NCBI RefSeq assembly: GCF_041248615.1
Contig: NZ_CP158426.1
DNA: 64,000 nt
Direction: 5' to 3' (one strand)
From: Escherichia coli
Lineage (GTDB): Bacteria > Pseudomonadota > Gammaproteobacteria > Enterobacterales > Enterobacteriaceae
Shown here one piece after another: positions 36,945-46,229 of this stretch. Made by a program: the position numbers and the translations under genes. The notes under the pieces are model-generated. The model searched no databases and had not been told where the DNA came from. It saw nothing but the letters and a program-made list of their open reading frames with translations. Position 1 is the first letter of the stretch; each line of letters starts with the position of its first letter.

Positions 36945-37568
36945 ATGTCATCAATCCGCTTAACTACGAGAATGAAAGAGGAAATCGCTCGTAACGCTTT
37001 AATTAAGTCTGGGGTTTTCACTGAACTTGAAGAAGTAACAAAGTTAAAGAACCAGCTTGCACTTGACGCCAGAGTTATTGCGTTTGGCGGTAAAAAGAAA
37101 ACTGAGGAAGTGGATCAGTTATCATCCAAGTTGGTAGCTATAAGTGAAGAACTTGAAAAGATGGGATGTTCATTTTACTCATACGATGTTCGTTCTACTT
37201 CAATTTATCTGACTGTATCTGGCAGAAGGGTTGGATGGCTTTCATATGGGAAAGACGGCAACGGCGAAGATATATTGCTCCCTGCTCCGAACAAAGATAA
37301 ATGCATGTTTAGCGCAGAACACGAAATAACAAAAAGGTTTGATGAAATCTGCGCATTGCAACAAAAACTTGAAGCCAAGAAAAAGGATATCGAATCAAAT
37401 GTATGGGCTGCTTTGAACTCAGTCACAACAGTTAAGCGACTTATTGAAGTTTGGCCTGAAAGCAAAGAGTTGCTACCAAAAGAAGCAGATAAAGCAAGTA
37501 CAGCACTTCCTGCTTTACGGGTAGAAGATTTGAATAAGATGATTGGACTTCCTTCCGAGGCCGCATAG
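36945..37568 (+). CDS. hypothetical protein (207 aa) immediately downstream of N
   Basis: ATG at 36945 with RBS GAGAGGA; no motif I can assign; followed by a terminator. Confidence 0.5.
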   Translation: MSSIRLTTRMKEEIARNALIKSGVFTELEEVTKLKNQLALDARVIAFGGKKKTEEVDQLSSKLVAISEELEKMGCSFYSYDVRSTSIYLTVSGRRVGWLSYGKDGNGEDILLPAPNKDKCMFSAEHEITKRFDEICALQQKLEAKKKDIESNVWAALNSVTTVKRLIEVWPESKELLPKEADKASTALPALRVEDLNKMIGLPSEAA

Positions 37569-38059: not shown

Positions 38060-39025
38060 ATGAGTGAAGTAACAGATTTAGTTGTTATTGAAAAAGCAAA
38101 TGCAATGACTGTATTTCAGTCTGCCGACCAGATTGAAGAAATCCTTCAAAAGGTTGAACGTGAAGTTATGTCCTTTGTGCCTGATATCACAACGGCAAAG
38201 GGCAGAAAGGAGATCGCTTCTCTGGCGTATAAAGTTGCGCAGACGAAAACATATCTCGATGGTCTTGGCAAAGACCTTGTTGCTGAACTGAAGGAAATTC
38301 CAAAGCTAATTGATGCCAACCGCAAGACAGTGCGTGATCGCCTTGATGAGCTGAAAGCCAAGGCACGCCAGCCTCTTACTGATTATGAGGAAGAACAGGC
38401 GCGGATTAAAGCCGAAGAGGAAGCTAAGGCAGCAGCTGAAGCCCTCGCAAAGCAAATTGAGTCTGACCATGAAATAGCGATTTTGATGGATCGCGAATTT
38501 GACCGCAAAAGAGAAGAGGCAAGACTCAAAGTGGAGCAGGAAAAGCGAGAGCATGAAGAACTCTTAAAAAGAGAAGCTGAAGAGAAAGCCAGAGCAGAAG
38601 CCGAAGCAAAGGCAAAAGCCGAAATTGAAGCAGCAGCAAGGCGAGAAGCAGAAGCTAAGGCAGCAGCGGAACGTGCAGAGCGTGAACGCATTGAAGCCGA
38701 GCAACGAGCACAGCGCGAAGCAAAAGAGGCAGCAGAACGAGCTGAAAGAGAAAAGCAGGCAGCAATTGAAGCAGAACGCCGAAAAGCACAGGAGGAGGCT
38801 GAACGAATCCGTCGCGATGCTGAAGCAAAAGAGCAAGCCAGAATAGCAGAAGAAAAAAGAATCAAGGAAGAAGAGCGTAGAGCAAAGGATAAAGCTCACC
38901 GGAAAGAAGTAAATAACAAAATACTTGCTGACCTTATCAAGGTTGGCGCATCAGAAGATGTTGCTAAAAATATCATAACAGCCATCGTAAAAGGCGAAGT
39001 ATTCGCAACAAAAATAACCTACTAA
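38060..39025 (+). CDS. coiled-coil protein with E/K/A/R-rich low-complexity core, probable recombination-module component
   Basis: 321 aa; central ~150 aa of AEAKAKAEIEAAARREAEAKAAAERAER-type repeats; upstream of the Sak4-like ATPase. Confidence 0.5.
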   Translation: MSEVTDLVVIEKANAMTVFQSADQIEEILQKVEREVMSFVPDITTAKGRKEIASLAYKVAQTKTYLDGLGKDLVAELKEIPKLIDANRKTVRDRLDELKAKARQPLTDYEEEQARIKAEEEAKAAAEALAKQIESDHEIAILMDREFDRKREEARLKVEQEKREHEELLKREAEEKARAEAEAKAKAEIEAAARREAEAKAAAERAERERIEAEQRAQREAKEAAERAEREKQAAIEAERRKAQEEAERIRRDAEAKEQARIAEEKRIKEEERRAKDKAHRKEVNNKILADLIKVGASEDVAKNIITAIVKGEVFATKITY

Positions 39026-39495: not shown

Positions 39496-40176
39496 ATGGG
39501 AACTGCGACATTAATACTCGGTGAATCTGGCACCGGAAAATCAACCAGCATGAGAAATATCAATCCAGAGGAAGCAATACTTATAAAACCAATAGGCAAG
39601 CCGCTTCCATTTAAATCAAAAGACTGGCTGGCATGGGATGCCAGAGCAAAAAAAGGAACCGTAGTTACCACTGACAAATGGGACGTAATAGTTGCCGTAA
39701 TTAAGCGTGCTCACGAATACGGGAAAAGAATCGTTATTGTTGATGACTTCCAGTATGTGATGAGCAATGAGTTTATGCGCCGCTCAGAAGAAAAATCGTT
39801 TGATAAATTCACTGAGATAGGCCGCCACGCATGGGAGGTGATTAAGGCTGCACAGGATGCACCTGATGACCTGAGAGTCTATTTTCTTGCGCACACCGAA
39901 GAAACCCCTATGGGGCGTGTGAAAATGAAGACTATCGGCAAAATGCTGGACGAGAAAATCACTGTCGAAGGCATGTTTACTATAGTTCTTCGCACCCTTA
40001 CCCGCGATGACCAGTTCTTTTTCACCACGAAAAACAACGGTGCAGACACTGTTAAATCCCCAATGGGAATGTTTGATTCTAATGAGATTGATAACGATCT
40101 CTCTTTCGTCGATGCCACTGTTTGTGATTACTACGGCATCAATAATGTTCATCAAATTAAGGAAAACGCCGCATGA
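39496..40176 (+). CDS. Sak4-like RecA-fold ATPase (phage single-strand annealing/recombination protein)
   Basis: 226 aa; Walker A LILGESGTGKST near the N-terminus and Walker B-like IVIVDD; size and position match Sak4-type recombinases. Confidence 0.65.
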   Translation: MGTATLILGESGTGKSTSMRNINPEEAILIKPIGKPLPFKSKDWLAWDARAKKGTVVTTDKWDVIVAVIKRAHEYGKRIVIVDDFQYVMSNEFMRRSEEKSFDKFTEIGRHAWEVIKAAQDAPDDLRVYFLAHTEETPMGRVKMKTIGKMLDEKITVEGMFTIVLRTLTRDDQFFFTTKNNGADTVKSPMGMFDSNEIDNDLSFVDATVCDYYGINNVHQIKENAA

Positions 40177-40760
40177 GCAACGTGATTTTTACTTATAACG
40201 AAGAAGCAGCACTGACCGCAGGGCAAGGTGGTTTTATTAACGAAACTGGTGCTCATATCATTACCATTACTGAAGCAGAACTAAAGCAATCAGAAAAAGG
40301 AGCCAAATTTATTGAGTTTTCTGGCGAATCTGACGACGGACGTAAAATCCAATATCTTAGCGTCTGTGTTCAGAAAAATGACGGAACGGAAAACAAATTT
40401 GGCGCAAATGTCGTTCACGCCATGATGGGGTGTGCCGGGATTGGACAATTAACGCAACATATGGTTTCCGCCAGTAAATTTGTTGCTCCTGAGTTTCATG
40501 GAAAGAAAATCGGGTTAGTGCTCCAGAAAGTATTAACCACAAACAAAAAGACTGGCGCAGACAGCTACCAGATGGAAATACGCATCCCGTTTATTGCACA
40601 AACAGGTCAAACCCTTAAAGAAAAGGCGGAAGGCAAGCAACCAGAAACTATCGCCAACATGGTTGCCAGCCTCAAAGATAAAGACAATCGCTCTAAAAAC
40701 GTAAGCCAGAATCATGCAGATGATTATGGTTACAGCCAGAACGATTACCCTCCATTCTAG
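40173..40760 (+). CDS. putative single-stranded DNA-binding partner protein with SSB-like acidic C-terminal tail
   Basis: 195 aa ending ...HADDYGYSQNDYPPF, resembling the SSB C-terminal tip (DDDIPF); coupled to the Sak4-like gene. Confidence 0.5.
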   Translation: MSNVIFTYNEEAALTAGQGGFINETGAHIITITEAELKQSEKGAKFIEFSGESDDGRKIQYLSVCVQKNDGTENKFGANVVHAMMGCAGIGQLTQHMVSASKFVAPEFHGKKIGLVLQKVLTTNKKTGADSYQMEIRIPFIAQTGQTLKEKAEGKQPETIANMVASLKDKDNRSKNVSQNHADDYGYSQNDYPPF

Positions 40761-40785
40761 ATTATTGCAAAATAAGGATTCCATT

Positions 40786-41082
40786 ATGCCAGCGCCTCTG
40801 TATGGTGCGGATGACCCGCGCAATTGCTCCGGTAGCTCCAAGGCGGAGGTGCTGGAAAATATCAAAAACAATTTCGACGCGTTTCTTGCTCTGACACCAG
40901 AAACAAAAGCAGAACGGATGTACCGACGCGATATACAACTCGCGCTAAAACAGGAGAAGGACCGAACAAACGAAACAGCAATGAGACCGTTGCGAAAAGC
41001 GACAATAGACAAATTCCCTGAATATATCGACCCGCGCCTGCGTAATTACCGCTCACGCTATGGCGCTATCAGTAATGACTGA
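40786..41082 (+). CDS. hypothetical protein (98 aa)
   Basis: ATG at 40786 with RBS AAGGA; track ORF starts earlier at a non-ATG codon. Confidence 0.4.
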
Positions 41083-41092
41083 GGAATTTACA

Positions 41093-41260
41093 ATGAGAGG
41101 ACTTGCATACAATCCCGGCATTCTTCCGGCAGAAATGATTATTCGCCAACGCGTAAAGCCAATGCCATCGAGAGAGGAATTGCTTAAGAGAAATTCTTTT
41201 CCGTCAGTAAATCAAAACAAATATCTGAATGCGATGTGGCGCAAAGGAGGCAAGCAGTGA
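41093..41260 (+). CDS. small hypothetical protein (55 aa)
   Basis: ATG at 41093 ([19 protein letters not shown]...). Confidence 0.3.
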
Positions 41261-41556
41261 GTGTATATCTTATTGATAAACGTCGACGTGGGCAACAAAT
41301 ACCACCTGTAGGAATTCCGAATCACACATGGTTTTGCGTACTTGATATCGATGGTATGGATGCGTTGGTTGACACTCGTCATTACTGCGATACCGCAACA
41401 GCTACTCCGGCGAAAGCAAAGAAAATGGCTGCTCTGATAGAAAACTGGACTCCACCTGATGGTTGGTGCAATGGGAATGATCGAGATTGGCATGAAAAAA
41501 TGAAGGGCTATATCTGCGATTTCTTACGTAAATGCAACGGCTTCAGGGTGATGTGA
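41257..41556 (+). CDS. hypothetical protein (99 aa), GTG start
   Basis: GTG at 41257 preceded by strong RBS AAAGGAGG. Confidence 0.35.
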
Positions 41557-41557
41557 C

Positions 41558-42175
41558 ATGAACAAGATTGACTATCAGGCACTGCGTGAAGCGGCAGAGC
41601 AGGCAATGCATGACGACTGGGGATTTGACGCAGACCTTTTCCATGAATTGGTAACACCATCGATTGTGCTGGAACTGCTGGATGAACGGGAAAGAAACCA
41701 GCAATACATCAAACGCCGCGACCAGGAGAACGAGGATATTGCGCTAACGGTAGGGAGGCTTCGCGTTGAGCTGGAAGGCAAAGACAGCAAAATAGCCAAT
41801 CTTACCGCCGAACGCGATGCTCTTCGTGAAGGTGAGATGGGCGACGCTAGGCATAGCAACACACGGGCCGCAGCTGATATCTACTTCCAACTGGTCGAGG
41901 AGTGCGAAATTCCTGCTGGCGGATCTCTGGTCGAGTACGTTGACGATATGCGCGAGAAGCTGGAAGCTGCAGAGAAGCGCATTGCAGAGTTAGAAAGTGG
42001 TTCTCAGGCACAAAAGTTAGTTGAAGCAATCATTGTTGCGATAGAAAACGAACAGGAAAGGCTTTTTGATGAAGATTACCTAATGGATTCGAAAGAATGC
42101 ATTGACGTAATTCGTGAAGAAGTAAAGCGATGGAATGATTCCCGTGCCGCTGGCATTCGCATCAAAGGAGAGTGA
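41558..42175 (+). CDS. Ea22-like early protein
   Basis: N-terminus MNKIDYQALREAAEQA... and coiled-coil core typical of lambdoid Ead/Ea22 family proteins. Confidence 0.55.
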   Translation: MNKIDYQALREAAEQAMHDDWGFDADLFHELVTPSIVLELLDERERNQQYIKRRDQENEDIALTVGRLRVELEGKDSKIANLTAERDALREGEMGDARHSNTRAAADIYFQLVEECEIPAGGSLVEYVDDMREKLEAAEKRIAELESGSQAQKLVEAIIVAIENEQERLFDEDYLMDSKECIDVIREEVKRWNDSRAAGIRIKGE

Positions 42176-42176
42176 T

Positions 42177-42719
42177 ATGACCACTATAACCGATAAGAAA
42201 CAGTATCCCAGCGAGCAATATCTTAATGAGCTGATCACCAACATAGAGTTTGCTGCAAGGGCACCAGTTGAAGTCGTGAGAGCGATGGCAGCAGAGCTAC
42301 AGAAGCGGCGCGAAGCTGATAGTGCAGAACCTGCAAGTAATCATGAAGAGTTGCCGCTTGATTATCTCCAAGGTCAAAAAGATGGTCTTGAATGGGCTGC
42401 GCAGCTTGCAGAAGCAAATCACCCACAAACTGGCGACTGGCTTTACGATGACCCGCTGGAGCTGGCTAAAGCTATCAGAAAAGGTCCTGACATGCCCGAA
42501 TTCGATGGACCAACTCCGGTAACTCCGGATGGTTGGATAAGCTGTAGTGAGCGAATGCCCGCTCAAGATGATTGGATTTTAATTTATTCAAAGCACGGCG
42601 AGTATATGGCAGGACAGGTACAAGGGGAATACGTGGAGTTGAGCGACGGCACTTTATCGTGGTTAGGGAACGCCTTGTACTGGATGCCTCTACCGGAACC
42701 GCCGCAGGAGGTGAAGTGA
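42177..42719 (+). CDS. hypothetical early protein with DUF551-like C-terminal domain
   Basis: ATG at 42177; C-terminus ...DGWISCSERMPAQDDWILIYSKHGEY...WMPLPEPP. Confidence 0.45.
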   Translation: MTTITDKKQYPSEQYLNELITNIEFAARAPVEVVRAMAAELQKRREADSAEPASNHEELPLDYLQGQKDGLEWAAQLAEANHPQTGDWLYDDPLELAKAIRKGPDMPEFDGPTPVTPDGWISCSERMPAQDDWILIYSKHGEYMAGQVQGEYVELSDGTLSWLGNALYWMPLPEPPQEVK

Positions 42720-42997
42720 TGGACTCCTTCGCGAAATATACGATTATTGACTGGATAGCCTTCCTTCAGGTTTTACTCATCTGGTTTTATATGGCTTACA
42801 GGAGTGGACAGTGGATTGTCAGTATAGCCTGTAGCAAGGGATGGCGTTGGTGGAACCGAAAGAATAAAAAAGCACTGGCATTGGATTCGTTTTACGAAGC
42901 ATTCAATCTTAACAGCCTTCAGCCTGGTTCTGTCGTTGTAGTCACCACTCAAAGCGGCATGACGATACAAATTCACAAGCCAAAGGATGAAAAATGA
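42719..42997 (+). CDS. small membrane protein
   Basis: 92 aa with one hydrophobic helix (IIDWIAFLQVLLIWFYMAY) then basic segment. Confidence 0.4.
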   Translation: MDSFAKYTIIDWIAFLQVLLIWFYMAYRSGQWIVSIACSKGWRWWNRKNKKALALDSFYEAFNLNSLQPGSVVVVTTQSGMTIQIHKPKDEK

Positions 42998-43083
42998 TGT
43001 GGCCTATATGCGTTAATTGCGGACGGATGTGCCTATCTGGATGGTGCCGAAAGTGCGACAAATGCACGAAGAAAAGACAATAA
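42997..43083 (+). CDS. tiny Cys-rich zinc-ribbon-like peptide (28 aa)
   Basis: MWPICVNCGRMCLSGWCRKCDKCTKKRQ with four CxxC-type pairs; below the ORF-track cutoff. Confidence 0.3.
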   Translation: MWPICVNCGRMCLSGWCRKCDKCTKKRQ

Positions 43084-43142
43084 CAATCCTCGCACTCGCG
43101 GGGATTTCTTTTATCTGAACTCGCTACGGCGGGTTTTGTTTT

Positions 43143-43454
43143 ATGGAGATGATTATGGCCTGTTCAACATTCACCACTTTAACGTTACAGAAATACCAGC
43201 CAGACCCTGAAGATTTATACTCACTGTGTGGCGGAAATCATGGTAAAGCCGCCATGATCGAATGTAAGGACAAAATCCACATATGCCTTAATTGCGTTGA
43301 TGTCCTCGTTGATATCAAAAATGAAAGAGAAGATAAAAAGCGTAGCGAGGCTATTCGCGCCTTAGATTCATGGATGCGAGATGGGTATAGTGCTGCGCAA
43401 ATTTATGACTTAGCCATTTCAAAAGGCGAAATACCAGGAGTGCGCATCGAATAA
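43143..43454 (+). CDS. hypothetical protein with Cys cluster (103 aa)
   Basis: Contains C...C...CLNC; last early-left ORF before xis. Confidence 0.4.
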   Translation: MEMIMACSTFTTLTLQKYQPDPEDLYSLCGGNHGKAAMIECKDKIHICLNCVDVLVDIKNEREDKKRSEAIRALDSWMRDGYSAAQIYDLAISKGEIPGVRIE

Positions 43455-43494
43455 GACGTAACCAATATTCGAATTGAAGAACTGAAAGAACACC

Positions 43495-43518
43495 AAGCCG
43501 CCTGATGGCGGTTTTTTC
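43495..43518 (+). terminator. rho-independent terminator upstream of xis
   Basis: Hairpin GCCGCC-TGAT-GGCGGT followed by TTTTTT. Confidence 0.5.
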
Positions 43519-43544
43519 TTGCGTGTAATTGCGGAGACTTTGCG

Positions 43545-43763
43545 ATGTACTTGACACTTCAGGAGTGGAATGCACGCCAGCGACGCCCAAGAAGCCTTGA
43601 AACAGTTCGTCGATGGGTGCGCGAATGCAGGATATTCCCTCCTCCGGTTAAGGATGGAAGAGAATATCTGTTCCACGAATCAGCGGTAAAGGTTGACTTA
43701 AATCGACCAGTAACAGGTAGCCTTTTGAAGAGGATCAGAAATGGGAAGAAGGCGAAGTCATGA
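43545..43763 (+). CDS. xis: excisionase
   Basis: 72 aa MYLTLQEWNARQRRPRSLETVRRWVRECRIFPPPVKDGREYLFHESAVKVDLNRPVTGSLLKRIRNGKKAKS, lambda Xis; overlaps int start. Confidence 0.92.
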   Translation: MYLTLQEWNARQRRPRSLETVRRWVRECRIFPPPVKDGREYLFHESAVKVDLNRPVTGSLLKRIRNGKKAKS

Positions 43764-44811
43764 GCGCCGGGATTTACCCCCTAACCTTTATATAAGAAAC
43801 AATGGATATTACTGCTACAGGGACCCAAGGACGGGTAAAGAGTTTGGATTAGGCAGAGACAGGCGAATCGCAATCACTGAAGCCATACAGGCCAACATTG
43901 AGTTATTTTCAGGACACAAACACAAGCCTCTGACAGCGAGAATCAACAGTGATAATTCCGTTACGCTACATTCATGGCTTGATCGCTACGAAAAAATCCT
44001 GGCCAGCAGAGGAATCAAGCAGAAGACACTCATAAATTACATGAGCAAAATTAAAGCAATAAGGAGGGGGCTGCCTGATGCTCCACTTGAAGACATCACC
44101 ACAAAAGAAATTGCGGCAATGCTCAATGGATACATAGACGAGGGCAAGGCGGCGTCAGCCAAGTTAATCAGATCAACACTGAGCGATGCATTCCGAGAGG
44201 CAATAGCTGAAGGCCATATAACAACAAACCCTGTCGCTGCCACTCGCGCAGCAAAATCAGAGGTAAGGAGATCAAGACTTACGGCTGACGAATACCTGAA
44301 AATTTATCAAGCAGCAGAATCATCACCATGTTGGCTCAGACTTGCAATGGAACTGGCTGTTGTTACCGGGCAACGAGTTGGTGATTTATGCGAAATGAAG
44401 TGGTCTGATATCGTAGATGGATATCTTTATGTCGAGCAAAGCAAAACAGGCGTAAAAATTGCCATCCCAACAACATTGCATGTTGATGCTCTCGGGATAT
44501 CAATGAAGGAAACACTTGATAAATGCAAAGAGATTCTTGGCGGAGAAACCATAATTGCATCTACTCGTCGTGAACCGCTTTCATCCGGCACAGTATCAAG
44601 GTATTTTATGCGCGCACGAAAAGCATCAGGTCTTTCCTTCGAAGGGGATCCGCCTACCTTTCACGAGTTGCGCAGTTTGTCTGCAAGACTCTATGAGAAG
44701 CAGATAAGCGATAAGTTTGCTCAACATCTTCTCGGGCATAAGTCGGACACCATGGCATCACAGTATCGTGATGACAGAGGCAGGGAGTGGGACAAAATTG
44801 AAATCAAATAA
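43741..44811 (+). CDS. int: tyrosine integrase (lambda Int)
   Basis: 356 aa MGRRRSHERRDLPPNLYIRNNGYYCYRDPRTGKEFGLGRDRRIAITEA... with catalytic R...HxxR...Y region; adjacent to attL. Confidence 0.95.
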   Translation: MGRRRSHERRDLPPNLYIRNNGYYCYRDPRTGKEFGLGRDRRIAITEAIQANIELFSGHKHKPLTARINSDNSVTLHSWLDRYEKILASRGIKQKTLINYMSKIKAIRRGLPDAPLEDITTKEIAAMLNGYIDEGKAASAKLIRSTLSDAFREAIAEGHITTNPVAATRAAKSEVRRSRLTADEYLKIYQAAESSPCWLRLAMELAVVTGQRVGDLCEMKWSDIVDGYLYVEQSKTGVKIAIPTTLHVDALGISMKETLDKCKEILGGETIIASTRREPLSSGTVSRYFMRARKASGLSFEGDPPTFHELRSLSARLYEKQISDKFAQHLLGHKSDTMASQYRDDRGREWDKIEIK

Positions 44812-44884
44812 TGATTTTATTTTGACTGATAGTGACCTGTTCGTTGCAACAAATTGATAAGCAATGCTTTTTTATAATGCCAAC
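44812..44884. promoter_or_regulatory. attP P' arm (Int arm-type and IHF H' sites) retained at attL
   Basis: Sequence between int stop and core that matches my recollection of the lambda P' arm. Confidence 0.6.
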
Positions 44885-44899
44885 TTAGTATAAAAAAGC
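44885..44899. other. attL core (lambda 15-bp common core, reverse orientation)
   Basis: Second exact copy of TTAGTATAAAAAAGC followed by host ybhC-proximal sequence. Confidence 0.88.
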
Positions 44900-44945
44900 A
44901 GGCTTCAACGGATTCATTTTTCTATTTCATAGCCCGGAGCAACCT

Positions 44946-46229
44946 GTGAACACATTTTCAGTTTCCCGTCTGGCGCTGGCATTGGCTTTTGGCGTGACGC
45001 TGACCGCCTGTAGCTCAACACCGCCCGATCAACGTCCTTCTGATCAAACCGCGCCTGGTACCTCTTCTCGCCCGATTCTGTCGGCAAAAGAAGCGCAGAA
45101 TTTCGATGCTCAACACTATTTTGCATCCCTGACACCAGGTGCGGCAGCGTGGAATCCTTCCCCGATTACCCTGCCTGCACAACCTGACTTTGTTGTCGGC
45201 CCGGCGGGTACTCAAGGTGTAACGCATACCACGATTCAGGCGGCGGTAGATGCGGCAATTATCAAGCGTACCAACAAGCGCCAGTATATTGCCGTGATGC
45301 CTGGTGAGTATCAGGGAACGGTGTATGTCCCTGCCGCTCCGGGTGGAATTACTCTGTACGGTACAGGTGAAAAACCGATTGATGTGAAGATTGGGCTTTC
45401 CCTTGATGGGGGCATGAGCCCCGCCGACTGGCGTCACGACGTCAACCCGCGCGGCAAATATATGCCAGGTAAACCAGCGTGGTATATGTACGATAGCTGC
45501 CAGAGCAAACGCAGCGACAGTATCGGCGTTCTCTGCTCTGCGGTCTTCTGGTCACAAAACAATGGCCTGCAACTGCAAAACCTGACCATCGAAAACACGC
45601 TGGGCGATAGCGTAGATGCGGGTAACCATCCGGCGGTGGCACTGCGTACTGATGGCGACAAAGTGCAGATCAATAACGTCAACATTCTCGGTCGTCAGAA
45701 TACCTTCTTTGTCACCAACAGTGGTGTGCAAAACCGTCTGGAAACCAACCGTCAGCCGCGTACTCTGGTGACCAACAGTTACATTGAAGGGGATGTGGAT
45801 ATCGTTTCTGGTCGCGGCGCAGTGGTGTTCGATAACACCGAATTCCGCGTGGTGAACTCCCGTACCCAGCAAGAAGCGTATGTGTTTGCACCGGCTACGC
45901 TGTCCAACATTTACTACGGTTTCCTCGCCGTAAACAGCCGTTTCAATGCTTCCGGTGATGGCGTGGCGCAACTGGGCCGCTCGCTGGATGTTGATGCCAA
46001 TACCAACGGTCAGGTGGTGATCCGTGATAGTGCCATCAACGAAGGTTTTAACACAGCCAAACCGTGGGCTGATGCGGTGATCTCTAATCGTCCGTTTGCG
46101 GGTAACACCGGCAGCGTTGATGATAACGACGAAGTACAGCGCAATCTGAATGACACTAACTACAACCGCATGTGGGAATACAATAACCGCGGCGTGGGTA
46201 GCAAAGTGGTTGCAGAGGCGAAGAAGTAA
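44946..46229 (+). CDS. ybhC: outer membrane lipoprotein YbhC (pectinesterase-like fold)
   Basis: GTG start; signal peptide with lipobox LTACS; 427 aa. Confidence 0.9.
   Translation: MNTFSVSRLALALAFGVTLTACSSTPPDQRPSDQTAPGTSSRPILSAKEAQNFDAQHYFASLTPGAAAWNPSPITLPAQPDFVVGPAGTQGVTHTTIQAAVDAAIIKRTNKRQYIAVMPGEYQGTVYVPAAPGGITLYGTGEKPIDVKIGLSLDGGMSPADWRHDVNPRGKYMPGKPAWYMYDSCQSKRSDSIGVLCSAVFWSQNNGLQLQNLTIENTLGDSVDAGNHPAVALRTDGDKVQINNVNILGRQNTFFVTNSGVQNRLETNRQPRTLVTNSYIEGDVDIVSGRGAVVFDNTEFRVVNSRTQQEAYVFAPATLSNIYYGFLAVNSRFNASGDGVAQLGRSLDVDANTNGQVVIRDSAINEGFNTAKPWADAVISNRPFAGNTGSVDDNDEVQRNLNDTNYNRMWEYNNRGVGSKVVAEAKK

Follow-up and report, generated by a model that had tools for sequence, protein, structure and literature searches.

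Early-left accessory genes ahead of xis in an Escherichia coli lambdoid prophage: Abc2, a conserved Cys-rich micro-gene and a probable stand-alone ClpX-type zinc-binding-domain protein

Results

Gene Content and Organization

The window, i.e., the whole stretch of 64,000 nucleotides of Escherichia coli DNA that was analyzed, carried at 40786-43454 (+ strand) a run of eight co-directional prophage genes, counting a gene for a Cys-rich peptide of 28 amino acids (aa). The first gene was recognizable as abc2, the seventh as a conserved micro-gene, and the eighth as the gene of a probable stand-alone ClpX-type zinc-binding-domain (ZBD) protein. The features of the locus were:

40786..41082, + strand: abc2, P22-type anti-RecBCD protein 2, 98 aa (PF11043, phrog_656, identity with P22 Abc2)
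41093..41260, + strand: DUF2737 protein, 55 aa, homologue of P22 orf56 (PF10930, 8.8e-32)
41257..41556, + strand: DUF7739 protein, 99 aa, with a GTG start overlapping the preceding stop (GTGA) (PF24881, 4.1e-19; phrog_1239, 2.6e-54)
41558..42175, + strand: Ead/Ea22-like coiled-coil protein, 205 aa (PF13935, 1.1e-20)
42177..42719, + strand: protein with a C-terminal DUF551 domain, 180 aa (PF04448, 4.6e-11, residues 119-177)
42719..42997, + strand: DUF4752 protein, 92 aa, with one N-terminal hydrophobic segment (PF15944, 4.2e-36); its start overlaps the DUF551 stop (TGATG)
42997..43083, + strand: Cys-rich microprotein MWPICVNCGRMCLSGWCRKCDKCTKKRQ, 28 aa (29 aa from the ATG at 42994), recognized by conservation; its start overlaps the DUF4752 stop
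43085..43136, + strand: two tandem GC-rich hairpins, each with a U-tract, terminator-like (folding against shuffles)
43155..43454, + strand: probable stand-alone ClpX-type ZBD protein, 99 aa, with a helical 'IPGVRIE' tail and Tyr22 (homologue of 933W L0063 and Sf6 gene 19)
43495..43514, + strand: terminator-like hairpin with a U-tract, between the last accessory gene and xis (dG, folding free energy, -14.6 kcal/mol)
43545..43763, + strand: xis (PGAP 'excisionase'; 99% identical to phage 434 xis DNA)
43741..44811, + strand: lambda-type integrase gene, then ybhC (context)

The homology search that the first-pass annotation of this DNA had proposed placed six genes of the cluster in Pfam families and a seventh in a PHROG family, and tblastn recovered homologues of the peptide. 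With six strong Pfam matches and a seventh strong match to PHROGs, the open reading frames (ORFs) are, to judge from these comparisons, real and well beyond chance expectation. NCBIfam gave no matches for any of ten proteins, and PADLOC gave neither defence-model nor toxin-model matches among the cluster proteins. An Rfam scan of 40000-45000 at E ≤ 1 returned nothing, so that no structured RNA other than terminators accounts for the intergenic hairpins.

The lambda-type integrase gene was followed by host ybhC, i.e., the prophage sits at the lambda attachment site. The two genes preceding the cluster (39496-40760) were named by PHROGs as a Sak4-like annealing ATPase and an SSB-like protein, which places the cluster between a recombination module and xis. 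A PGAP-annotated E. coli chromosome (NZ_LT599825) was 99.2% identical over 40700-43560. Its order on the same strand was a cI-type repressor, several small genes, CIII, Kil, an ATP-binding protein and a hypothetical protein, continuing with "phage anti-RecBCD protein", DUF2737, DUF7739, ead/Ea22-like, DUF551, DUF4752, a hypothetical protein, excisionase, integrase and ybhC. Context, PHROGs and PGAP all agreed with the earlier description of early-left accessory genes of a lambdoid prophage between a recombination module and xis. Segment 40786-43454 very likely forms the distal accessory part, known as 'ea' in P22 and as 'exo-xis' in lambda, of the leftward early operon in a mosaic lambdoid prophage at attB-lambda; this confidence applies to the explanation as a whole, with context, families, peptide and ZBD protein taken together.

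Gene junctions were overlaps of 1-4 nt or gaps of 1-10 nt (GTGA, TGAcATG, TGAtATG, TGATG, ATGATG), with a purine-rich stretch upstream of each junction start. The first seven genes were tightly packed and, because their stops and starts overlap or abut, they are probably translationally coupled. Two hairpins with U-tracts separated the peptide gene from the last gene, which is therefore not translationally coupled to the others. The first-pass annotation had described seven tightly packed and coupled ORFs; the packing was found as described, the count became eight with the peptide, and the coupling of the last gene was lost. Matches to sigma-70-like promoters were absent from 40500-44000 on either strand (0, against 4.8 ± 2.2 in shuffles), which is consistent with a long promoter-free polycistronic stretch.

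Hairpins and Mosaic Structure

Terminator-like matches in 40500-44000 numbered seven, and three of them were convincing on the + strand. The hairpins at 43085-43106 and 43117-43136 had z-scores of -5.4 and -3.8 singly, and as a tandem pair (43085-43136) reached dG -24.1 kcal/mol (z -5.95; 0/200 shuffles as stable). The hairpin at 43495-43514 (z -2.9) bore out the earlier mention of a terminator before xis. Its region was common to phage 434, whose record marks a terminator in the neighbourhood, exact coincidence with the hairpin not being established. All three are GC-rich stem-loops with a U-tract and terminator-like, and are predicted to have termination activity.

No phage record covered ≥80% of the region, the matches being patchworks of 3-6 pieces at 88-97% identity, and only two E. 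coli records covered ≥80%. A 933W-type block (98.8% identity) began at about 43079, right after the peptide stop, and included both tandem hairpins. Bracketing of the ZBD gene by hairpins on both sides and its arrival as a separate mosaic block are typical of a 'moron', so that the last gene, or the whole block, might be a lysogenic-conversion or superinfection-exclusion gene expressed from the repressed prophage. This is highly improbable given that no promoter-like sites were found in 40500-44000, that defence models were not matched, and that the ZBD gene has the position and orientation of the early-left accessory genes of P22, 933W and Sf6.

The 28-Codon Gene

The peptide contained six Cys in three CxxC spacings, five of these Cys being conserved in relatives, and not the four CxxC-type pairs that had been attributed to it. 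The conserved core was MWPICxxCGRxCxxxWCxKCD(K/R), and the 24-mer form of the peptide was MWPICKHCGRMCWSEWCIKCDKRG. Near-identical copies were found by tblastn in many lambdoid and P22-like phages, and copies 64-76% identical in the unrelated isolated phages Deseoctovirus C1, Skatevirus KFS-SE2, Swiduovirus CF-SP1, ST1UNAM and ZCEC08 and in the 154-kb Citrobacter phage Tr1. None of the copies in isolated phages was annotated, and they started within a few bases of the upstream stop, behind a GGAGG-like sequence.

In comparisons of lambdoid prophages with three groups of isolated lytic-type phages, synonymous divergence was saturated (pS 0.7-1.1) and nonsynonymous divergence was low (pN 0.15-0.25; pN/pS 0.14-0.3). 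Variable alignment columns at codon positions 1, 2 and 3 were 7, 7 and 16 of 22, and TGC and TGT were switched at all five conserved Cys. The pN/pS ratio, the third-position bias and the Cys codon switching together point to selection on the peptide sequence. By this comparative evidence, the 28-aa ORF is a genuine protein-coding, mobile micro-gene. C5xxC8, C17xxC20 and C12 were invariant in seven tblastn copies, obtained with no pattern imposed, and in 19 peptide variants of 24-38 aa from 75 IMG/VR loci, obtained with a degenerate DNA pattern that itself required conserved core residues including Cys.

Peptide DNA was carried by 182 of 5426 complete E. coli genomes (about 3%). In the sampled rows of those 182, only the DUF4752 gene was annotated beneath the match, and the peptide was unmarked in the PGAP/RefSeq annotation of all genome hits inspected. 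The records of phages Dewey (L002 1524-1625) and mEp213 (L087 1217-1456) annotate other frames and leave out the MWPIC frame. The peptide was deposited only as HK106_030 (L088 1201-1290) and in one third-party annotation (TPA) entry, whose 'DUF1244' label was not reproduced by Pfam. HK106_030 (YP_007151700.1, coliphage HK106, 29 aa) was identical or near-identical to the peptide and occupied the same place after the DUF4752 gene; it is an annotation only, with no family or function attached.

Even at E ≤ 1-10, neither Pfam nor PHROGs had a family that matched the peptide. A 25-position family profile had 0 matches at E ≤ 0.001 among 1.84 billion representative proteins, a search of low sensitivity with so short a profile; the motif was thus not detected as a domain within larger proteins. 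The 90%-identity cluster of the peptide (P0126-P0131) was headed by an unrelated 480-aa TolC-like protein and was dismissed as a clustering artefact of very short sequences. In a scan of species-representative genomes the motif occurred in one species only, Kluyvera sichuanensis, which indicates that the peptide is rare and confined to enterobacterial prophages.

The 28-aa ORF might alternatively be a chance ORF or a non-coding feature, e.g., a 3' trailer of the DUF4752 gene before the terminators. It is very short and skipped by PGAP, annotators of Dewey and mEp213 took other frames over the same DNA, frames +2 and -2 were likewise stop-free in the seven compared copies, and the search of representative proteins with the family profile came back empty. 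Non-coding DNA is nevertheless a very improbable explanation. The aa sequence was held across very different phage groups despite synonymous saturation, variable sites were biased to the third position with TGC and TGT alternating at all five Cys, and the Shine-Dalgarno sequence and the stop/start abutment were conserved in unrelated upstream contexts. Gene callers that ignore ORFs of fewer than 30 codons would account for the absence of profile matches.

The gene upstream of the micro-gene varied with the context. In lambdoid and P22-like phages it was the DUF4752 gene; in other prophages of enterobacteria, Kluyvera among them, it encoded a DksA/TraR-like zinc-finger protein of ~72 aa (phrog_54); in isolated siphoviruses it encoded a protein of 180-270 aa, and elsewhere other proteins. 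A Shine-Dalgarno sequence and an abutting stop/start accompanied each of these partners. In locus L071 the upstream protein differed except for the last ~10 residues of DUF4752, which suggests that the cassette carries its own initiation region. Downstream neighbours also varied (lambda orf55-like, phrog_444-like and other genes). The peptide occurred both in temperate lambdoid and P22-like phages and in several isolated phage groups that had no integrase in the loci examined. At 42989-42997 the DUF4752 gene ended in GAA AAA TGA and the peptide lay in its -1 frame; speculatively, the A5 run could permit a -1 slip fusing the two products; other contexts of the peptide do not have such an A5 run, which argues for independent initiation as the general rule.

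The peptide may bind zinc as a minimal two-knuckle ribbon (C5xxC8 ... C17xxC20, with C12 spare). The first-pass designation of a zinc-ribbon peptide agreed with the two conserved CxxC knuckles, and no described zinc-ribbon family of Pfam or PHROG was matched. Like lambda Orf73 and the TraR/DksA-type zinc-finger proteins, small Cys4 proteins of the exo-xis region (PMC8614690), it is a small Cys protein of this region; it differs from TraR in being one third of the size, in lacking a helical part and in having no similarity of sequence. A TraR/DksA-like gene immediately precedes the micro-gene in many prophages, the two being translationally coupled, whereas the window has DUF4752 at that place and no TraR-like gene in the cluster.

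Early-left small membrane-anchored or zinc proteins of lambdoid phages include host-modulating factors such as Kil, and DUF4752 with the coupled Cys peptide, and perhaps other products, could be host-killing or division-blocking toxins. The membrane-anchor-like segment of DUF4752 and the strict coupling of the two genes in lambdoid copies agree with such a function. This suggestion of the first-pass annotation gained no specific support, and a toxin is still an unlikely interpretation: the prophage already has Kil and CIII upstream, toxin and defence models had no matches, and the peptide pairs equally with soluble partners, both TraR/DksA-like zinc-finger proteins and the 180-270 aa protein of lytic-type phages. 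The peptide is therefore not specifically a partner of a membrane protein.

The ClpX-Type Zinc-Binding-Domain Protein

The 99-aa form of the last protein was favoured by a GGAG six bases ahead of ATG 43155, by the PHROG alignment and by PGAP. It matched phrog_3680 (1.4e-66) and was 96% identical to 933W L0063. Single-sequence searches of the PDB gave weak and consistent matches to ClpX ZBDs (E 0.05-0.6). The PF06689 model matched the common allele below its cut-off (E 0.014; 15.7 bits, cut-off 27), and did not match the window allele even at E ≤ 10. A divergent homologue from a Providencia phage opened a profile search that recovered at least 291 relatives from Escherichia, Enterobacter, Klebsiella, Salmonella, Citrobacter, Yokenella, Proteus, Morganella and Providencia, some of them named "ClpX C4-type zinc finger protein". 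PF06689 was matched at E ≤ 0.01 by 48/79 aligned members (best 2.8e-5), and the top five PDB matches of the family profile were ClpX ZBD structures (best E 0.004). The CxxCG-x18-CxxC spacing and the ICxxCVDL motif were in common with E. coli ClpX, and common E. coli alleles are labelled "ClpX-type ZB domain-containing protein" in UniProt.

On these profile and motif matches, the last protein is most likely a stand-alone ClpX-type ZBD protein with a helical tail. This identity corrects its first description as a 'Cys-cluster protein'. Compared with the ZBD of ClpX itself (PF06689; PDB 1OVX, 2DS5-2DS8), the window protein was free-standing at 99 aa, had no AAA+ module, had an extra IPGVRIE tail and remained below curated thresholds throughout. 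Foldseek of the predicted model against the PDB gave no significant match. The last gene was considered as a homologue of lambda Ea8.5, which has the same position before xis, and this was rejected as it matched no Ea8.5-type PDB entries, only ClpX; phi24B gp05 (modelled in PMC8614690) was a different protein.

The consensus of the family was CSLCG-x18-CLNC, and ≥90% of 79 members retained its first Cys. In the window allele the segment read YSLCG: codon 22 (43218-43220) was TAC (Tyr) instead of TGC/TGT (Cys) for the first zinc ligand, which left 3/4 canonical ligands, i.e., short of a four-Cys CxxC-x18/19-CxxC pattern. The Tyr allele was shared with NZ_LT599825 and was found in about 20 contigs, against >1000 for each common Cys allele. 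It may be weakened or altered in function.

The C-terminal helices ended in AISKGEIPGVRIE. A C-terminal module of ~45 residues ending in (A/S)xG(K/E)IPG(V/I)(K/R)(L/I)E was also present on otherwise unrelated phage proteins (BLASTP E 4e-6). Carriers of this tail (L003 921-1499, phage C1 ORF50; L079 13079-13666; window 43332-43451) often, not always, adjoined the micro-gene. An obligatory link of peptide and 'IPGV' tail was rejected as not general, since the tail protein precedes the peptide in C1, follows it in L079 and the window, and other neighbours exist. The IPGV tail looks like a separately mobile module.

The N-domain of ClpX forms dimers by itself and serves as a docking site for adaptors and for substrates, MuA and FtsZ among them (PMC5415555), so that a free ZBD copy could compete for partners or pair with ClpX. 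The ZBD protein might act in this way through protein-protein contacts, competing with or docking onto ClpX N-domain partners (adaptors or N-domain-dependent substrates) and altering ClpXP proteolysis early in infection; this is the foremost of the proposed functions, put forward tentatively and with limited confidence. Alternatively, it would not act on ClpX at all: the zinc domain would be a dimerisation scaffold and the tail would bind a sigma or transcription factor, as in the anti-sigma factor CsfB/Gin, or DNA. This second possibility is also rather doubtful. The likeness was specifically to ClpX ZBDs, in the CxxCG-18-CxxC spacing and the flanking 'ICxxCVDL', and the top PDB sequence matches were ClpX only. 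The likeness to Bacillus subtilis CsfB/Gin (PDB 5N7Y) is an architectural analogy only, with no detectable sequence similarity, another organism and another context.

Abc2 and the Recombination Module

The product of the first gene matched PF11043 over its full length (E 1.5e-35; 121.7 bits, cut-off 25; residues 1-98 on model 1-97/97) and phrog_656 (5e-45), and was 61% identical to P22 Abc2 across 98 residues, also full length. The same gene was named 'phage anti-RecBCD protein' by PGAP in the near-identical genome. The first gene, directly behind the Sak4-like and SSB-like genes, is thus functionally assignable by homology as abc2, part of the recombination module, and its product is predicted to bind RecC/RecBCD. 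P22 Abc2 is a biochemically characterised RecBCD-binding protein that modulates the enzyme instead of just blocking it, and a cryo-EM structure exists (PMC9836394). The first-pass annotation had held that none of the ORFs was functionally assignable, which is contradicted by Abc2 at one end of the cluster and by the recognizable ClpX-type ZBD at the other.

With abc2 included, the recombination module spanned 39496-41082 and comprised the Sak4-like ATPase, the SSB-like protein (phrog_743, with no Pfam match) and Abc2. The P22 module is Erf/Abc1/Abc2, and the window module differed from it in having no Abc1 and in having the Sak4-like ATPase and the SSB-like protein instead of Erf. P22 Abc2 likewise adjoins phage recombinase genes.

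DUF2737, DUF7739, Ea22-like, DUF551 and DUF4752 Genes

Genes 2-6 belonged to known and uncharacterised phage families, and no mechanism is assignable to them from sequence. The DUF2737 protein was 77% identical to P22 orf56, which in P22 too follows abc2. The first-pass identification of an Ea22-like and a DUF551-like protein was upheld by Pfam. The Ea22-like protein aligned with PF13935 over residues 3-146 (75.1 bits, cut-off 27; model 2-139/139) and was 41% identical to P22 EaD. The start given by PGAP for this gene in NZ_LT599825 corresponds to 41606, 16 codons downstream of 41558, and ATG 41558 lies one base past the preceding stop. The upstream start is preferred because the Pfam alignment begins at residue 3 of the 205-aa ORF; the RefSeq form is probably too short. 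Lambda Ea22 is tetrameric and pro-lysogenic, with a variable C-terminal domain, solved by NMR in lambda, that differs between phages, and DUF551 is a portable domain on some Shiga toxin (Stx)-phage Ea22 variants and on YfdS (PMC10834534).

The DUF551 domain scored 43.8 bits against PF04448 (cut-off 22), and the C-terminus of the protein was similar to P22 EaA and 933W L0065. The DUF4752 protein scored 123.3 bits against PF15944 (cut-off 27). Its Kyte-Doolittle maximum over 19 residues, on a simple hydropathy scale only, was 1.78 (residues 8-26), followed by the basic stretch RWWNRKNKK. The one hydrophobic segment agrees with its earlier description as a 92-aa single-pass membrane protein, and the part of that description that concerns the membrane is tempered: the N-terminal segment is compatible with a probable membrane anchor and is not proof of one.

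Discussion

Comparison with Known Phage Regions

The P22 plan, erf-abc1-abc2-orf56-eaE...eaC-xis-int, had the same order as the window, and the P22 'ea' and lambda exo-xis regions had the same position, orientation and tight packing as the cluster. P22 shared with the window abc2, orf56 (DUF2737), an EaD/Ea22-type protein and a DUF551-type C-terminal domain. The window differed from the P22 and lambda regions in having Sak4/SSB-like genes rather than Erf or Exo/Bet, and in adding DUF7739, DUF4752, the micro-gene and the 933W L0063-type gene, with lambda-type xis and int. The lambda/Stx block orf60a-orf63-orf61-orf73 and lambda ea8.5 were absent from the cluster. The exo-xis/ea region is non-essential and affects the lysis-lysogeny decision and induction (PMC3824215, PMC10834534), and its overexpression or deletion changes lysogenisation and induction (PMC3824215).

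Proposed Expression and Function

From gene order and from lambda and P22, the cluster would be transcribed after infection or induction from a leftward repressor-controlled promoter as part of one long early transcript. N-type antitermination would carry transcription past all three terminator-like hairpins as far as xis-int. Translation of genes 1-7 would be coupled through their overlapping stops and starts, and this coupling would set their stoichiometry. Abc2 would bind RecBCD and redirect it for the phage Sak4/SSB recombination module. The peptide would fold round a zinc ion and modulate some host or phage partner, and would travel as a small cassette that is always translated via coupling to the upstream gene. 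Gene 8 would have entered independently, in a 933W-type block of its own with hairpins on either side.

Several points weigh against this account. All eight genes are known here from sequence alone, and the functions proposed for them, with the exception of that of Abc2, are inferred. Read-through of the hairpins under N is assumed from lambda and P22, and zinc binding by the peptide is read from the Cys pattern only. Part of the Cys invariance in the IMG/VR set is imposed by the search pattern. The JEP4 copy of the micro-gene (L011 1504-1575) was decayed, with three Cys replaced (R, R, F), and the Vi II-E1 copy (L009 1492-1581) kept only the C-terminal half (…SWCKKCDKSPK) and had no upstream early genes; these decayed copies indicate that the peptide is dispensable.

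A broader proposal, possible and short of probable, is that the 'MWPIC' peptide (24-29 aa) represents a hitherto overlooked family of phage microproteins that bind zinc, spread horizontally and act on a conserved enterobacterial host target and that, separately, the 933W L0063-type protein is a decoy of the ClpX domain on which substrates and adaptors dock. Members of the peptide family may be expressed by obligatory coupling to whichever early gene precedes, be it DUF4752, TraR/DksA-like or of the IPGV-tail type.

Significance

As one more reshuffled form of an accessory region that is well known, the locus changes little, and UniProt already gives the ZBD identity for the common allele of the last gene. 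The evolutionary case for the micro-gene, and for its mobility across temperate and lytic-type phages, is the most original result: a 28-codon ORF that standard pipelines skip or mis-frame is a conserved gene, and offers a concrete small-protein target. A gene for a probable free ClpX-type ZBD lies beside xis in 933W-type Shiga-toxin phages, in Sf6 and in this prophage. If the proposed functions are true, phages would tune ClpXP-dependent proteolysis, or use the ZBD as a dimerisation scaffold, early in development, which bears on the induction of Stx prophages.

Other Genes of the Early-Left Operon

Upstream of the recombination genes and in the same early-left operon, a gene at ~36945-37568 (coordinates carried over from L001 2246-2869) was annotated 'Nmad5 family putative nucleotide modification protein'. 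A protein of 321 aa with a long Lys/Glu/Ala-rich repeat region was encoded at 38060-39025; its PGAP label, 'cell envelope biogenesis protein TolA', probably stems from low sequence complexity and misnames an early protein of the phage.

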